Positions 9,491 to 15,758 of a stretch of 15,758 nt of DNA are shown piece after piece. Under the pieces are notes generated by a model, which worked only from the letters and a program-made list of their open reading frames with translations, ran no database searches and was not told the origin of the DNA. Source of the stretch: Candidatus Subterrananammoxibius californiae (GTDB taxonomy: Bacteria > Planctomycetota > Brocadiia > Brocadiales > Subterrananammoxibiaceae); the NCBI GenBank assembly GCA_030586555.1, contig JAURAC010000048.1, positions 1-15,758 of the forward strand. Direction: 5' to 3'. The position numbers and the translations under genes are program-made. Each line of letters starts with the position of its first letter. The first letter of the stretch is position 1.

Positions 9491-9976
9491 TTAGTTGTGG
9501 CTATAACTGTCAACGGACTCAACATCTTTTACCTTTTCCTTAATCCTATGATTTTCATCGCTCTCCATGTTGCCCAGTGACTCACCCCATAGAGAAGCCT
9601 CTGCCTCAACCTTGGCTCCCAGCTCTATTTCTTCTTCCTCTACTTCCTTGCACTTTATACAGAGGGTAGCAAATGGCAATGCCTCAAGCCGTGCCTTTTT
9701 TATTGGTTCCCCACAATTCCTGCAGATACCATAGCTACCAGACTTTATTCTTGCCAGAGCCTCATCAATCTGTTCAAGTTCCCTTCTTTCTTCCTCAACT
9801 ACAAGCCATGACAGCTCATCCCTTAAGGTGTTTGAGGCAATATCAGCAAGGTCGGTAAAACGATGCCCCCCCAACTCACGGTTTTCTTGAAATCTCCGTT
9901 CGATTTCCCGGATTAGATGCGTCCGTCTCATTGACAGACGATTTTTAAGTTGCCTGAGTGACATTTTTCTTCGCAT
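9491..9976 (-). CDS. DksA/TraR family C4 zinc-finger transcription factor
   Basis: Coiled-coil tip DLADIA (DxxDxA) and YGICRNCGEPI...RLEALPFATLCIKCK. Start placed at 9976 behind GGAGGG; acidic C-terminal tail. Confidence 0.9.
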   Translation of the reverse strand: MRRKMSLRQLKNRLSMRRTHLIREIERRFQENRELGGHRFTDLADIASNTLRDELSWLVVEEERRELEQIDEALARIKSGSYGICRNCGEPIKKARLEALPFATLCIKCKEVEEEEIELGAKVEAEASLWGESLGNMESDENHRIKEKVKDVESVDSYSHN

Positions 9977-10282
9977 TTTAATTTTACCCTCCAGATAAAG
10001 ACTCCTCACTACAAGTAAGGAATTAAGGAGCAAAATATATACCACTTTAAGACAATTAATACATAAAATCCATAAAGCCCTTAATGTTAATTGGTTAACA
10101 TTTATTTAAAGGTCTTCAAATGTTTTTGCCCCTTTTTCACACTTTTATTACCAGATTTAAAACTCTTATATAATTATACCCTATTTTTCAGCAAAACCAA
10201 TAGTATTTTAATTATCGAGCAAACTTTTTTAAATACATATCTAATATACAATGTAATAATAACTTAGATTCAATATTACATG

Positions 10283-10399
10283 CGATACTAAACCAAATGG
10301 AAGACTCCCCCACTGGGGGTGGGCTTGATTAAAGAAGAAGTCCGCCAAATGACGACGGACCCTAACTCGCATCGTGCAGGTAAATGCTTGCTTATGTCG
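10283..10399 (-). ncRNA. Candidate structured non-coding RNA, family unassigned
   Basis: GC-rich island in an AT-rich spacer, starting ~6 nt after a consensus promoter, with three predicted hairpins and an imperfect closing stem. Confidence 0.55.
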
Positions 10400-10404
10400 G
10401 ATAT

Positions 10405-10432
10405 ATTATAACAGGTTTAATAAATTTGTCAA
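10405..10432 (-). promoter_or_regulatory. Consensus sigma70 promoter
   Basis: Minus strand TTGACA-16 nt-TATAAT with extended -10 (TGt-TATAAT). Confidence 0.8.
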
Positions 10433-10588
10433 GTGTAGATTTTTTGAATGTAACCGCAAATTAAAAATGTCAGTTTTATTACAATTCCCCAATATAATAC
10501 CAATCACATTAAAAAATATATCCTCCTTGTCGGCCAATCGCTTTATCCTGAAATTTCTGCAACTTTGGTTATCTTTTTATTCACGGTT

Positions 10589-11896
10589 TTAATCGAACGA
10601 GTTAATGACGAGGCCTGTAAGGGGCTTTGGATAAAAGTATGTGGCTTTTGGGGGCATCTTTTGTCTTACGCTTGCAATCCTGCTTACCTGTTCGATGAGC
10701 GTTGGGTTGTGAAAGAAGGCTAATTGGTATTTTCCTTCGTTTACAAGTTTCACGGCTTCTACTTCGCTCTGGATATATTCAATGCTGTCTTGTTTTACGT
10801 TTTCATCTGTTTTAATTCCAAGATACTTATCGAGAATTAAATCATGCAATATGCATACGTCTAAGTCCTTCCATTCGGGATGTCGCCAGCCCTGAACTTG
10901 ATTCAGGGTAGACTTTATTTCATTGCGAAGAAGTAAAAGGTAAAACCTCTTTTCTTTGCCTTCATACATACCAAAGGCATGCTTATCGGCATGCTGATGA
11001 AGCTTCTTTATTAATGAATGGACGTTACAATCCTTCCCAAGATTTTCTACATTAAAAGAATCTTTTATAGCGGTTTTGAACTGCTCTAAGCTAAAACTCG
11101 CTGGGAGATTTTTTATTACTCTATGCGTAGGGAGTATTTTCAGTCCGGGATTGTTCAGTGAAACGCACATCATCATTATATAATCAACTGCGCTTTCTTG
11201 CCCATGTTTCCCTTTTAACTCGTTTCTATAAGCGAGGGCTGATTCGTAGCGGTGGTGTCCGTCTGCGATAAAGAGCGGCTTATCTTTCATAAGCCCCTGA
11301 ATTTTTGCAATAATTGCCGGGTCATCTATCGCCCAGAAACAATTTTTTACCCCTGCTTCATCAAAAGCAGTGATTGCTTTTGATGAATGTTGAACTGCAT
11401 CTGTTAGTACACCTTCAATGGCATTATCGGGATAGAGGGCAAATATCGGGCTAAGGTTGGCTTTACATGCCCTGATTAATTTGAGGCGGTCTTCTTTCGG
11501 TCCTGGCATCGTCTGTTCGTGTGGATAGATATGCCCAGTGCCAAATTCCTCAAGTTTGACCCCTGAGATAAAACCTCTTCTTACAAACTTCCTTCCTTCG
11601 AGTTCAAACTCCTGGTCATAGACGTATATGGAAGGGCAAATATCGCGTTTAAATACGCCTTCACGCAGCCAGTTGTGGAGAAACCTGGCTGCCCTCGTGT
11701 ATTTATTTTCGTGTTCATTATCGTCTGGAAGTTCCTTGCCGAGGATTAGCCTGATGATGTTGTGTGGATGCAACTCGTAATATTTTTCTCTATCCTGTGG
11801 AGAAATCACATCGTAAGGCGGCGTAAGTACCTTTGAAAAGTCCTCTATTGGTTCCAGATTATATCTTATCCCTCGAAAGGGCATTATCGTTGCCAG
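10589..11896 (-). CDS. DUF1015 family protein
   Basis: PFRGIRY, PPYDVIS, IYPHEQT, FIADGHHRY, ILPTHR, MPPKATYFYPKP motifs. Start probably CTG at 11896 (alternative ATG at 11884). Confidence 0.9.
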   Translation of the reverse strand: MATIMPFRGIRYNLEPIEDFSKVLTPPYDVISPQDREKYYELHPHNIIRLILGKELPDDNEHENKYTRAARFLHNWLREGVFKRDICPSIYVYDQEFELEGRKFVRRGFISGVKLEEFGTGHIYPHEQTMPGPKEDRLKLIRACKANLSPIFALYPDNAIEGVLTDAVQHSSKAITAFDEAGVKNCFWAIDDPAIIAKIQGLMKDKPLFIADGHHRYESALAYRNELKGKHGQESAVDYIMMMCVSLNNPGLKILPTHRVIKNLPASFSLEQFKTAIKDSFNVENLGKDCNVHSLIKKLHQHADKHAFGMYEGKEKRFYLLLLRNEIKSTLNQVQGWRHPEWKDLDVCILHDLILDKYLGIKTDENVKQDSIEYIQSEVEAVKLVNEGKYQLAFFHNPTLIEQVSRIASVRQKMPPKATYFYPKPLTGLVINSFD

Positions 11897-11912: not shown

Positions 11913-12698
11913 TCATTCTACTACCTTTAAGACTTCACACCAAAATTTTTCGTTTAAATCGTCTGAATATTTACCATAAACAAGATCCCATAAAATACGT
12001 ATATTCCGAAATGCAGAAAACCCGACAAAAACACCAACAAAAATATAAAACCAAAAAGCTGGCTCTTTTACGATGGAGATAAATACACAATCTAAGATAG
12101 GTTGTAGCAAACCTTTTTCTTTAAAAGTAGAAAAAGCAATTATTATATGTTTTTTCAAACTGGCAAATAAGCAAAGCAATGACAACCACAGAAAAATGTG
12201 CATTACTATAACCCAATAATGCCGAGTTGTCCTAAAAAATAATAAGCAAAATGCCCCTGTTAGTTTTTTCCAACGTGAGGAGCCTTGAGGCTCTTTTACC
12301 CCGCCCAGCTTGCGATATTCTGCAAGTGCACTTTCCCATCCGAGGAAGTTACCTGCAGCTATCTGCTCAAGAATCAGTTTTTCTATTATCCTGAAATAGC
12401 CTATAATGCGATTTATGGTGGTAGCCTTATCAAAGAAAATCCACCATGATGGAAGCAAAATGACTAAGGGAAGTAACCACCAAAGATTAGACGGTGGTGA
12501 ACCTTTACTTTCGGAGGAAGCATAATGTCCACCTATTTCTTTGATGATAAAGCCGAGGATTAACCCCGTAGTCATTACAGAAAAGGTTAGAAATCTAACT
12601 TGACACTCTTTCAAATGTTGAAGTTCCTCCCTTAAAAAAGCGTGTTCTTTTATACAAAGCACAACATTTTTTTTAGTCATTAGGAACCCTTCCCACAA
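11913..12698 (-). CDS. Hypothetical integral membrane protein (~4 hydrophobic segments)
   Basis: Hydrophobic stretches FLTFSVMTTGLILGFII, LWWLLPLVILLPSWWIFF, YWVIVMHIFLWLSLLCLFA, FWFYIFVGVFVGFSAF. Start is TTG 12698 (AAAGGA upstream) or ATG 12680. Confidence 0.7.
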   Translation of the reverse strand: MWEGFLMTKKNVVLCIKEHAFLREELQHLKECQVRFLTFSVMTTGLILGFIIKEIGGHYASSESKGSPPSNLWWLLPLVILLPSWWIFFDKATTINRIIGYFRIIEKLILEQIAAGNFLGWESALAEYRKLGGVKEPQGSSRWKKLTGAFCLLFFRTTRHYWVIVMHIFLWLSLLCLFASLKKHIIIAFSTFKEKGLLQPILDCVFISIVKEPAFWFYIFVGVFVGFSAFRNIRILWDLVYGKYSDDLNEKFWCEVLKVVE

Positions 12699-12846: not shown

Positions 12847-14364
12847 TTACAAAGCTGAAGATTTAACTTCCTGAATGAGATATTGATTATCCTTGATACA
12901 ATTGGTTTCCCCAAATTTGTATATATCCTTGAGCGTCTCATAAGCTTCTGCACCACTTTCAAAAAATTTATCACTTCTTATTTCAGTTGTTATAGAACCT
13001 GACGAACCAATTAGTTTTAGCTCAATATACCTTTTGTAAATTGCGTTTATTATTGATTTTAAAAATTCCCCTTCTTTATCTTTAGTTATAACCAATTCAG
13101 CCCTATTTTCGGAATCCTTTATTAAGTTTCTAATTCTGAACACCACCACAGGGAAAATATGTTCAATATTATAATTTGTTATATTGCGTAACACTCGCTT
13201 TGTATCCTCACTAGGTTCATTATTCTCAAACTTTATATTATTTCTAATCGAAGTATTTTTCAATTCTCCATTTATAGCTTTTTCAACATACTCTCTATAG
13301 TAAATATCTCTCTGTAATTTAAGTTGATTAATAACAATATCTTCTCTTATCGAGTAAAGTAAGGGGATAATCTTAGAAACAACCTTAATAGTTGTTTGTA
13401 CCTTACCCTTTTCTTTATTCCGGATCAATCTGATAAAGATGTTATAGATTGGTGCTCTTTGATTTGATAACCTAAAAATTTCCTTGTATTTTGTAAAGAT
13501 ACCCGTTGCAATAACTGGCCTCAATAAGGTAAGGATATGTACTTTCGGTTTTCTTCCAATAATCTCACCAAATCGATATTCAATTTCTACTTTACTTCCG
13601 TACTTGGCTATGAAATCTCTAAAAATGGTTTCTTCTAAAAATTTTTTATGCTTACTTCCGAAGATATCGTCTACTTTAACATTTTGAGTATCATTATTTG
13701 CATTTGCTATTAACGTTCCTGTTGCATATTCATCTAAGTTGTCAATTGATTCAGTTATTTTATCTAACGAGTTAATTGTAATTCTAATCTTTGAATTTAA
13801 AAGTTTATCTAAAGCTAATGCATTAAAATTAGTAAAATATTTATTATTATCACACAAAAATTTACGTACTTCTGAAACTTTTGGGAATTTGACCAATCTC
13901 AGAAAGTCTCGTATTGGGTTATTGTTTTTGAATTCGTGATTTAAAAATTCATTAAAAGACCTTTGAACAAAGTTTTCTAAACTTTTTGTATTCGTTGAAT
14001 ATTGCTTAAGTAAAGATAGTATCAATATGATAAATCTTGTTTGATTTCCGTTTGTTAAACAACAAGTTTCATAACTAATTGATAAATAATCGCTATCTAT
14101 GTTCACACCGGTTGCAGACACAATCATACCTGAGTGGAGAAAACGGAACATCTCCTGATCCTTAAGAATACTTTTTATTATTTCTAGGTTTGTCTTTTTT
14201 AACCCGATGTATTCCCGAGGGTTACTGCCAGCTTCGGTATCCCGGTAATCTAAAAAAAGAACATCCCTAAAAAGTGTTTCCCCGAAAATAGTCTTTTTAT
14301 CACCTGATACAAAACATTTCTCTGGAAAGGTCAATTTATTCTCAAATTTGAATATATCCGACAT
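12847..14364 (-). CDS. AIPR-like (abortive infection phage resistance, ParB/Srx-type motif) protein
   Basis: SNPREYIG...N.EI..SI...F.FLHSGMIV...LTNGNQT...IANANNDTQNVK..D resembles the AIPR pattern NVR.YLG/NNGI/NG.QT/ATN.QN. ATG at 14364 follows AAGGGGA; 505 aa; AT-rich. Confidence 0.7.
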   Translation of the reverse strand: MSDIFKFENKLTFPEKCFVSGDKKTIFGETLFRDVLFLDYRDTEAGSNPREYIGLKKTNLEIIKSILKDQEMFRFLHSGMIVSATGVNIDSDYLSISYETCCLTNGNQTRFIILILSLLKQYSTNTKSLENFVQRSFNEFLNHEFKNNNPIRDFLRLVKFPKVSEVRKFLCDNNKYFTNFNALALDKLLNSKIRITINSLDKITESIDNLDEYATGTLIANANNDTQNVKVDDIFGSKHKKFLEETIFRDFIAKYGSKVEIEYRFGEIIGRKPKVHILTLLRPVIATGIFTKYKEIFRLSNQRAPIYNIFIRLIRNKEKGKVQTTIKVVSKIIPLLYSIREDIVINQLKLQRDIYYREYVEKAINGELKNTSIRNNIKFENNEPSEDTKRVLRNITNYNIEHIFPVVVFRIRNLIKDSENRAELVITKDKEGEFLKSIINAIYKRYIELKLIGSSGSITTEIRSDKFFESGAEAYETLKDIYKFGETNCIKDNQYLIQEVKSSAL

Positions 14365-14992
14365 CTTTATTCCCCTTAAATATTTGACGCATGATGATTG
14401 ACACATATTTAAAATCCGAGATAAGTTCTTTGAATCTTTTACCATTGTTTGCTATCAAAAATTTTCCTGGTTCTTGAAAACGGTTTAGCTTGTACTTTCT
14501 TTCATACTCCTTAGACAATACTCGCTTTGCAAATCCTGAGTAGTGAGATAAATAATTTCTAATTTTATAAACAAATTGGATAGAATCTTTTTGTTTAGAT
14601 GATATTTTTTTTACAAAAGGATTATATTGCTCTACTGTATACTTTTTAAATAATCCATTCACCTTATCTAATTCATGGAAGTCTCTATAGTTATCTGAAA
14701 ATAAAATTGCCCTAATTACACTATTATCTAAATTTATCCTCTTAGGTAGGTTCATTTTTTCTTTTAGCATAGAACAATCTAATTTAACAGCCAATATCAG
14801 CTCTTCTTCTAGAAATTTTTCCCATAATGCACATACTCTTAATATTAAGGACTCTAAAAGCAAGCCTTTTTCTTTCTCAGGTATTCTTCCTTTACTTGAT
14901 AAATCCAAGATAATTTCAGCCCCATATTGTAAAATTTCTTCTATATTATTCTCAAACTTTTTATGATTATTTATTATGCTTTGTTTTTGCAT
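14342..14992 (-). CDS. Putative HEPN-domain ribonuclease
   Basis: Helical protein with ALWEKFLEE and IRNYLSH (RxxxxH). Overlaps the downstream gene by 23 nt. Start is ATG 14992 (TTG 15034 possible). Confidence 0.6.
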   Translation of the reverse strand: MQKQSIINNHKKFENNIEEILQYGAEIILDLSSKGRIPEKEKGLLLESLILRVCALWEKFLEEELILAVKLDCSMLKEKMNLPKRINLDNSVIRAILFSDNYRDFHELDKVNGLFKKYTVEQYNPFVKKISSKQKDSIQFVYKIRNYLSHYSGFAKRVLSKEYERKYKLNRFQEPGKFLIANNGKRFKELISDFKYVSIIMRQIFKGNKDVGYIQI

Positions 14993-15071
14993 TGTAAATC
15001 GACTCAAGCAAGTGTACTGCTCCCTATTTGTCAAGCATCATTTTTTGTAGTAAGTAATCCGCCTAAGGCAG

Positions 15072-15219
15072 ATTGTTCTTTCTCAAATTAAACTGGTGTC
15101 TTATAGTCTAAAGCCGAATGTGGATAGTCATCATTATAATGAGGGATTTACACACCTGAAAAAACTTTTCTGGCAGTCTCAACGGCTTGTCAGCCTTAGA
15201 CGGATTCAGGATTTTTCAT
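15072..15219 (-). pseudogene. Degenerate direct repeat copy B / collapsed HEPN partner gene of the MNT
   Basis: ATG at 15219 overlaps the MNT end (MKNPE), followed by a mini-palindrome containing TAA, then AVETARKVF/(frameshift)QVCKSLI, homologous to copy A. Confidence 0.55.
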
Positions 15220-15535
15220 TAAAAGGGTAAACTTCTCTGGCGCTTTCGAGGGCGCTTATAATAAATGGGTTTTCATTCTCCTTCATTTGTTCAAATTCTT
15301 CTGGCGTATAAACGAAAACATCAACAGGAATTGGAAAAAGGGGAACTTCCAAAAGCCGTTCCAGAAACCTCTTATTAGTTTTTTTGATAATAATTAAATC
15401 CAGGTCGCTATATTCATCAGCATCGGCACGAGCTTGTGAGCCAAAGATTATAATTTTTTCCACAGGCCCATAGCCATTCACTATAGTCTTGACGATTTCA
15501 TCAACATTTATTTTTTCTTTGATTTCAACTAGCAT
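15206..15535 (-). CDS. Minimal nucleotidyltransferase (MNT) domain protein
   Basis: IIIFGSQARADADEYSDLDLIII (GS...DxD) and VDVFVYTPEEF. Start at 15535 avoids overlap with ahcY. Confidence 0.9.
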   Translation of the reverse strand: MLVEIKEKINVDEIVKTIVNGYGPVEKIIIFGSQARADADEYSDLDLIIIKKTNKRFLERLLEVPLFPIPVDVFVYTPEEFEQMKENENPFIISALESAREVYPFNEKS

Positions 15536-15542
15536 GGGTCTT

Positions 15543-15758
<216 letters not shown>

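Follow-up and report, generated by a model that had tools for sequence, protein, structure and literature searches.

What does a perfect bacterial promoter serve when some 420 nt separate it from the next gene and no known RNA follows it? The question is raised by a contig of the planctomycete Candidatus Subterrananammoxibius californiae (assembly GCA_030586555.1, contig JAURAC010000048.1), which was analysed over its whole length of 15,758 nt and is here called the window. In it, a consensus sigma-70 promoter and the GC-rich segment behind it, together spanning positions 10432-10283 (hereafter the element), occupy a 612-nt spacer between a gene for a DUF1015 protein and a gene for a protein of the DksA/TraR family. 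The original prediction, made from the letters of the DNA, was of a structured non-coding RNA, either a stand-alone small RNA (sRNA) or a cis-regulator of the DksA-like gene. We tentatively favour the former, and with less emphasis on structure: at a probability of roughly 0.4, the element would specify an independent, genus-level small transcript of ~70 or ~110 nt that ends at terminator-like hairpins. The stand-alone claim is helped by a conserved promoter, a terminator-like hairpin and the lack of a coding signal, and is harmed by an overall fold at the level of shuffled sequence. The element and all large open reading frames (ORFs) around it lie on the minus strand, to which all window coordinates below refer; other contigs of the genome are given by C number.

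The promoter (10432-10405) comprises TTGACA (10432-10427), a 16-nt spacer and an extended -10 element, TGTTATAAT (10413-10405). It scores 12 of 12 hexamer matches and carries TG at -15/-14, precisely the architecture that had been predicted. Just 5' of the -35 box lies an A-tract, CAAAAAAT (10439-10446), possibly an UP-like element. Promoter geometry would place the transcription start at 10396-10398, 7-9 nt past the -10 hexamer. Perfect TTGACA-N16-18-TATAAT pairs occur 61 times in the genome, against a mean of 3.05 (standard deviation 2.4, maximum 10) for 40 pairs of permuted hexamers in the same genome, an enrichment of about 20-fold; moreover, three known RNAs (two tRNAs and one S-adenosylmethionine riboswitch) turned up when 20 regions behind perfect promoters, chosen by hand, were scanned with Rfam. 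The consensus is thus clearly used in this organism.

DNA of this organism occurs in groundwater metagenome sequencing runs, of which X2-X5 share 72-80% of sampled words with it, and our comparative data are DNA contigs from other groundwater samples (runs X2, X7, X8 and X9), aligned at a cut-off of 80% identity; the contigs of X7 and X9 leave most of the element uncovered. In X2, which comes from another study and is 99+% identical, the full 1201-nt stretch 9700-10900 lies within one contig, so an assembly chimera does not account for the arrangement. The one indel in this contig, the loss of 1 nt at 10352, removes the first loop base of a hairpin described below (hairpin 1), keeping the stem and frameshifting a 43-codon ORF that overlaps the element. 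In run X8, 1 nt is missing at 10447, beside the A-tract. Run X9 comes from a more distant relative, with coding flanks identical at 264/296 and 140/156 positions (~89-90%). Here a 202-nt contig (record 17) matches just positions 10403-10445, at 42 of 43 letters, and both immediate sides fall below 80% identity, which argues for selection on the promoter. Within the first 30 transcribed bases, TTTACCTGC (10384-10376) is the sole stretch kept in full (9/9), and it is a candidate seed or binding motif. Judged from these alignments, the promoter core is under clear purifying selection and the start of the transcript, save for this one 9-nt motif, is not.

The segment behind the promoter (10400-10283) is 118 nt long with a GC content of 51%, compared with 31% in the 156 nt upstream and 25% in the 306 nt down to the start codon of the dksA-like gene at 9976; the GC-rich segment of ~118 nt and the ~300 AT-rich nt before the DksA/TraR start had both been described correctly. 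Three hairpins had been proposed, and one of them has statistical support. Hairpin 1 (10361-10339; arms GUCCGUCG/UGGCGGAC) has a 9-bp stem with G-U pairs and a 5-nt loop (10352-10348), and it folds at -13.3 kcal/mol (z -4.44), with none of 200 shuffles as good. It was picked out as terminator-like by a terminator scan and is followed by a U-rich tract, UCUUCUUUAAU (10338-10328), with six U in its first eight nucleotides, a candidate end for a transcript of ~70 nt. The 5' hairpin ACCUGC-ACGAU-GCGAGU (10381-10365), at -2.0 kcal/mol (z -0.72), was equalled or bettered by 36 of 200 shuffles. Similarly, hairpin 2, CCCCC-AGU-GGGGG (10319-10307), at -8.9 kcal/mol (z -0.46), was matched by 58 of 200 and is what base composition would lead one to expect. 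Behind hairpin 2 the sequence has an interrupted U-rich tail (10306-10290), which the terminator scan did not flag and which is a candidate end for a read-through form of ~110 nt.

Is the element a known RNA? The window contains no match to Rfam 15 at gathering score and the element none at E<=10, riboswitch and cis-regulatory RNA families included, as the original prediction had said of riboswitches; the covariance-model scan thus lends no support to a known identity. Between 9950 and 10650 there are only two weak matches (E 1 and 4.5), both outside the element and at chance level, and ARAGORN found neither a tRNA nor a tmRNA. The likeness to 6S RNA (RF00013) extends to a small RNA beside the gene of an RNA-polymerase-binding factor and to short motifs (ACCUGC..GCG.GUU, GCCCACC, GGGAG), which had been pointed out and which we regard as coincidental. 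The architecture differs, the length of ~70-118 nt does not fit the ~185 nt of 6S RNA (an objection already raised when the motifs were noticed), no 6S match occurs in 9950-10650 at E<=10, and the genome has its bona fide 6S RNA at C117:42368-42567 (67.1 bits). We therefore reject this identity.

The element is also narrowly distributed. No second copy was found in its own genome. When 60 relatives, the remaining 91 genomes of the order and 131 further genomes of the class were searched with BLAST (E<=0.001 for the class), no homologue emerged, just short chance matches. Two of these, in genus g12, lie inside a coding region, and three others are also unrelated; the matches inspected fall in coding sequence or at unrelated promoters. 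The 900 nt upstream of the dksA-like gene at 29 orthologous loci of the order (locus L054 was excluded as too short) gave no match with blastn-short or nhmmer other than the element itself. In contigs of species-representative genomes, a scan for exact copies of the 28-nt promoter gave 0 matches, protein-anchored scans of metagenome and genome contigs recovered just distant zinc-finger relatives, and phage and plasmid collections contained no match to the element. No homologue for the analysis of covariation suggested with the original prediction was thus found in the genomes searched or at the orthologous loci; contigs from other groundwater samples show that the locus is real. We accordingly call the element lineage-restricted in the sense that nothing was found beyond very close relatives of this genome.

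If the element does encode an independent small RNA, a constitutive-looking sigma-70 promoter, with its extended -10 and A-tract, would fire at ~10398-10396. Most transcripts would stop at hairpin 1 and its U-rich tract UCUUCUUU, near 10330, giving an RNA of ~70 nt, and a read-through form of ~110 nt would end after hairpin 2, near 10290. The 5' third of the RNA would be largely unstructured, with UUUACCUGC as its conserved motif, and a stable hairpin would form the 3' part, a build that is usual for base-pairing sRNAs. The nearest known class is that of base-pairing sRNAs confined to one species or genus, transcribed from a sigma-70 promoter of their own and ended by an intrinsic terminator. 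The element resembles them in its strong promoter, its probable length of ~70-110 nt, its apparently unstructured 5' part with a short conserved motif, its 3' hairpin with a U-rich tract, its intergenic position free of a credible ORF and its narrow range. It differs from them in that its U-tract is interrupted and that Hfq was not found. Such an RNA would act by base pairing in trans, without Hfq. Predicted pairing with the start region of the dksA-like gene is not significant (-18.3 kcal/mol against -12.95 +/- 3.8; 9.5% of 620 other start regions are as good), and the genome holds no antisense match to the element longer than 13 nt. The RNA would be young and confined to a genus-level lineage of groundwater planctomycetes, its hairpin borrowed from a palindrome, TCCGCC...GGCGGA, that is dispersed through the genome.

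Several observations weigh against an independent small RNA. First, the entire segment folds no better than its shuffles (z -0.96 for 131 nt, -1.33 for 116 nt and -1.78 for 70 nt). The imperfect closing stem that had been proposed is thus without statistical support, and the label 'structured RNA', which overstates the case, has hairpin 1 as its whole basis. Second, the U-tracts after both hairpins are interrupted, canonical long-stem terminators with T7 runs exist elsewhere in this genome (e.g. at C38:12218), and termination at the element may be leaky. Third, the X8 contig over 10261-10488 has 10 substitutions and one gap (95.6% identity, compared with 94.6-96.3% for neighbouring pieces) and so shows no excess conservation of the element. 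In X9, 19 of the first 30 transcribed letters are identical (counted by eye), fewer than in the coding flanks, and the selected product may therefore lie further downstream, for example in the dksA-like operon. Fourth, Hfq was not found in the genome, which is 95.8% complete. Finally, the arms of hairpin 1, GTCCGTC/GGCGGAC, match those of the commonest palindrome of the genome at 13 of 14 positions (by eye), so that the origin of hairpin 1 may lie in a dispersed repeat rather than in selection for this RNA.

Taken together, we conclude that the observation behind the original prediction is real but was over-read. The element is of an ordinary kind: a candidate sRNA, orphan and restricted to its lineage, that follows a strong promoter. 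As a discovery of a structured RNA it is weak and ranks below candidates supported by covariation. Were it transcribed as proposed, it would be among the first candidate small RNAs in this anammox-related order of planctomycetes; among the papers listed by a literature search on this subject, none names small RNAs in its title or abstract. In that case it would, besides, illustrate cleanly how a young sRNA gene can be put together out of a consensus promoter and a hairpin derived from a repeat.

The alternative reading as a cis-regulator depends on how the downstream gene is transcribed. The DksA/TraR-family gene (9976-9491) encodes 161 amino acids, starting from an ATG at 9976 behind GGAGGG (9992-9987); its product has a coiled-coil tip of the DxxDxA type (DLADIA) and a C4 zinc finger, and the nearest clusters of this protein are mostly from Planctomycetota, an indirect check on taxonomy. 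By aligning the upstream regions of orthologues, we found a sigma-54-type promoter of the form GG-N10-GC, TGGTATATATTTTGC (10044-10030), 54-68 nt before the ATG. It is the sole match to TGGYAY-N5-TTGCW in the window (10044-10029 for this consensus), where 0.06 would be expected. A TGG-N9-TGC motif lies within 200 nt upstream of the gene at 11 of 16 loci of family f3 (three more have CGG) and one of two of family f4 (loci concerned: L043, L044, L046, L049, L055-L057, L131-L137 and L139), compared with none of eight in family f2 and none of 11 in family f5. An f4 genome carries TGGCACCACATTTGC, a textbook TGGCAC-N5-TTGC. At f2 loci TTTACA-17-TATATT stands instead at about -56, and at f5 loci the dksA-like gene directly follows an ORF that we take to be gyrB-like from its C-terminal residues. 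When the f3 upstream regions are made into a profile, its sole alignment to the window covers the sigma-54 promoter and the block just before it (E 0.0025); rpoN is present on C75.

The dksA-like gene is thus most likely, on these alignments, sigma-54-dependent from its proximal promoter, and the sigma-70 promoter ~375 bp further upstream appears to be a lineage-specific addition. Strong promoters of this gene in relatives lie 55-132 nt from its start. Since the gene has a sigma-54-type promoter of its own, the element is probably not its leader. The cis-regulatory half of the original prediction is weakened by that promoter, by the absence of the element at all 29 orthologous loci and by the lack of a riboswitch match. 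A search of the published literature on dksA and sigma-54 promoters gave, among the papers listed, no precedent for a sigma-54-dependent dksA, and the Geobacter dksA is tabulated with an RpoD promoter in PMC2725144. The firmer by-products of this work are the dense palindromic repeats described below and the finding that, in two or three families of the order, a conserved sigma-54 promoter precedes a DksA homologue; such a promoter would link a cofactor of the stringent response to sigma-54 control.

Other features surround the sigma-54 promoter. Some 40-70 bp upstream of it lies a perfect palindrome, TGTTAACCAATTAACA (TGTTAA-CCAA-TTAACA, 10100-10085), which by its sequence is a candidate operator, integration host factor (IHF) site or activator site. 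Directly downstream, in the 5' untranslated region (UTR) of the dksA-like gene, a hairpin CUCCUUA...UGAGGAG (10030-10002) is terminator-like according to the scan. A different 5'-UTR block is conserved among the f3 loci, and the profile search gave no alignment of it to the window. Six f3 loci (L046, L047, L048, L049, L055 and L056) also have a conserved AT-rich inverted repeat (GCGAAAA..ATTTC / GAAAT..TTTTCG) ~320-390 nt before the start codon, 210-260 bp upstream of their sigma-54 promoters and accompanied by further conserved blocks; it is likely to be an activator-binding site.

Could the sigma-70 promoter nevertheless serve the genes downstream? Possibly, though we doubt it, it might be a distal promoter (P1) of an operon that comprises the dksA-like gene and the gene that follows it, for an AMP-binding, acyl-CoA-synthetase-like protein (9426-7915), in tandem with the sigma-54 promoter as P2; the hairpins would then form an attenuating or stabilising leader, and an RNA-polymerase-binding factor would conceivably come under dual control by two sigma factors. 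A model exists in glnAp1/glnAp2 of Escherichia coli, tandem sigma-70 and sigma-54 promoters ~115 bp apart. There, as here, one gene is preceded by a sigma-54 promoter and, farther upstream on that strand, by a sigma-70 promoter; the present pair differs in its spacing of ~375 bp and in the two terminator-like hairpins between the promoters. The greater conservation in X9 of the promoter core than of the first 30 transcribed nucleotides would follow naturally from this arrangement, as would the interrupted U-tracts. From 10432 to 7915 everything lies on one strand with no strong canonical terminator, and the dksA-like and AMP-binding genes are adjacent at 17 of the 29 relatives' loci. On the other hand, the leader would be ~420 nt long and consist mostly of a spacer of 25% GC that tolerates large indels (in X9, 108 nt of it are replaced by 51, and there are several insertions besides). 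At the 29 relatives' loci, strong sigma-70-type promoters able to serve the gene lie 55-106 nt from its start, and four distal matches at 627-653 nt fall in or beside an upstream divergent gene. Hairpin 1, with six U in eight nucleotides behind it, was scanned as terminator-like, and no riboswitch family matches at E<=10.

A second alternative is that there is no functional RNA: the element would be a decayed insert in the AT-rich spacer, either repeat-derived or foreign, with the promoter kept for a reason at the level of DNA or simply because divergence has been too short. The repeats of this genome give the idea some substance. The 15-nt palindrome TCCGCC-N3-GGCGGA (TCCGCC-TNA-GGCGGA) is present in 163 copies, mostly with unrelated flanks (e.g. 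C6:10139, C38:66942 and C109:3791), and the looser pattern CCGCC-N3-9-GGCGG in 249 copies, compared with 3-41 for eight control pairs of arms. According to a rough map of ORFs, 111 of these 163 copies lie inside open frames of at least 120 codons, and 14 of the 163 have feet of the GTAG/CTAC type. A 50-nt repeat of two hairpins, GTCCGCC-AAAA...-GGCGGAC followed at once by TCGCC...GGCGA, has ~18 copies at E<1e-6 (C38:60364-60413, C68:4837-4886, C90:118623-118671, C11:77662-77710 and others), some of which tip longer inverted repeats. Given the agreement of its arms with the commonest palindrome, hairpin 1 was probably seeded by one of these genomic palindromes. Like the palindromes of the repetitive extragenic palindromic (REP) type in this genome, it is a GC-rich intergenic hairpin; it differs from them in its loop of 5-7 nt rather than 3, in that no GTAG/CTAC feet were seen, and in that the element is single-copy. 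Consistent with a relic, too, are the non-significant overall folding and the lack of a homologue in the 131 further genomes searched in the class. However, a profile made from the two-hairpin repeat misses the element at E<=10, and a promoter block kept at 42 of 43 positions beside flanks below 80% identity in X9 is hard to explain other than by selection on the promoter. We therefore consider a relic unlikely.

Very unlikely, in our view, is a third reading, in which an activator of the sigma-54 promoter ~300 bp downstream would use the palindromes at 10360-10340 and 10319-10307 as its enhancer or operator sites and, when bound, would also block the sigma-70 transcript. A sigma-54 promoter does require an upstream activator site, the inverted repeat of the f3 orthologues (CGAAAA...TTTTCG) lies at a similar distance, ~210-260 bp upstream, and the AT-rich spacer would presumably favour looping. 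Yet the two palindromes have unrelated sequences and so would not share a binding protein, the f3 repeat has no homology with the element (the one alignable region being that of the sigma-54 promoter), the palindrome TGTTAACCAATTAACA is nearer and better placed, and the presence of a perfect promoter is left unexplained. Equally improbable is a synthesis of these ideas, in which a newborn, genus-specific regulatory RNA with a captured palindrome as its terminator would lie within the region that holds the enhancer of a DksA homologue transcribed by sigma-54, so that sigma-70 and sigma-54 would jointly set the level of a secondary-channel factor. If true, this would amount to a sensor of sigma competition wired around DksA, with RNA output or read-through on one side and sigma-54 activity on the other.

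The last alternative concerns coding. The original prediction saw no credible ORF in the element, which is nearly right: an ATG ORF of 43 codons (10372-10241) overlaps it, and we judge this ORF to be non-coding. It has no Pfam match at E<=10, inspection found no purine-rich Shine-Dalgarno run before its ATG, its GC content falls from 51% to 25% within the frame, and the 1-nt deletion frameshifts it in the 99%-identical strain X2. Among 1.84 billion protein representatives it has five matches at E<=0.001, all with 3-8 matched stretches; the three that were inspected are internally repetitive and none is a DUF1015 protein. Its residues ~16-46 bear a weak likeness to positions 332-362 of a DUF1015 profile. 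When all 95,908 six-frame fragments of the genome were searched with a DUF1015 profile made from 29 relatives, the ORF came out as third-best noise match, at E = 12, and a DUF1015 relic is thus unsupported. Although the frame is open in the window and shows its faint likeness beside an intact DUF1015 gene, we consider a 43-amino-acid peptide, or a remnant of a DUF1015 segment, hardly credible.

Some features of the wider setting may be recorded. The genome bin (3.34 Mb in 150 contigs, 42% GC, 95.8% complete with 5.1% contamination), in which the window is contig C106, is the sole member of its family and genus among the genomes compared. The upstream neighbour of the element is the DUF1015 gene (11884-10589). 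A second DUF1015 copy at C3:2968-4008 (minus strand), cut by the end of its contig, scores 645.8 bits against the relatives' profile, compared with 609.1 bits for the copy in the window, and could be a paralogue or contamination. Further along the window, an ORF of 532 amino acids (12847-14445) gives a borderline match to the abortive-infection family AIPR (24.8 bits, the cut-off being 25). Its neighbours are two ORFs that match no family (11913-12698 and 14342-15034) and one with a nucleotidyltransferase domain (15206-15601), and the region may be a defence islet.

Elsewhere in the genome, two further perfect sigma-70 promoters, at C38:12218 (minus strand) and C11:43404 (plus strand), precede short segments that contain no ORF and have no Rfam match. 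The segment at C38:12218 ends in the canonical terminator with long stem and T7 run mentioned above, and both segments are further sRNA candidates.

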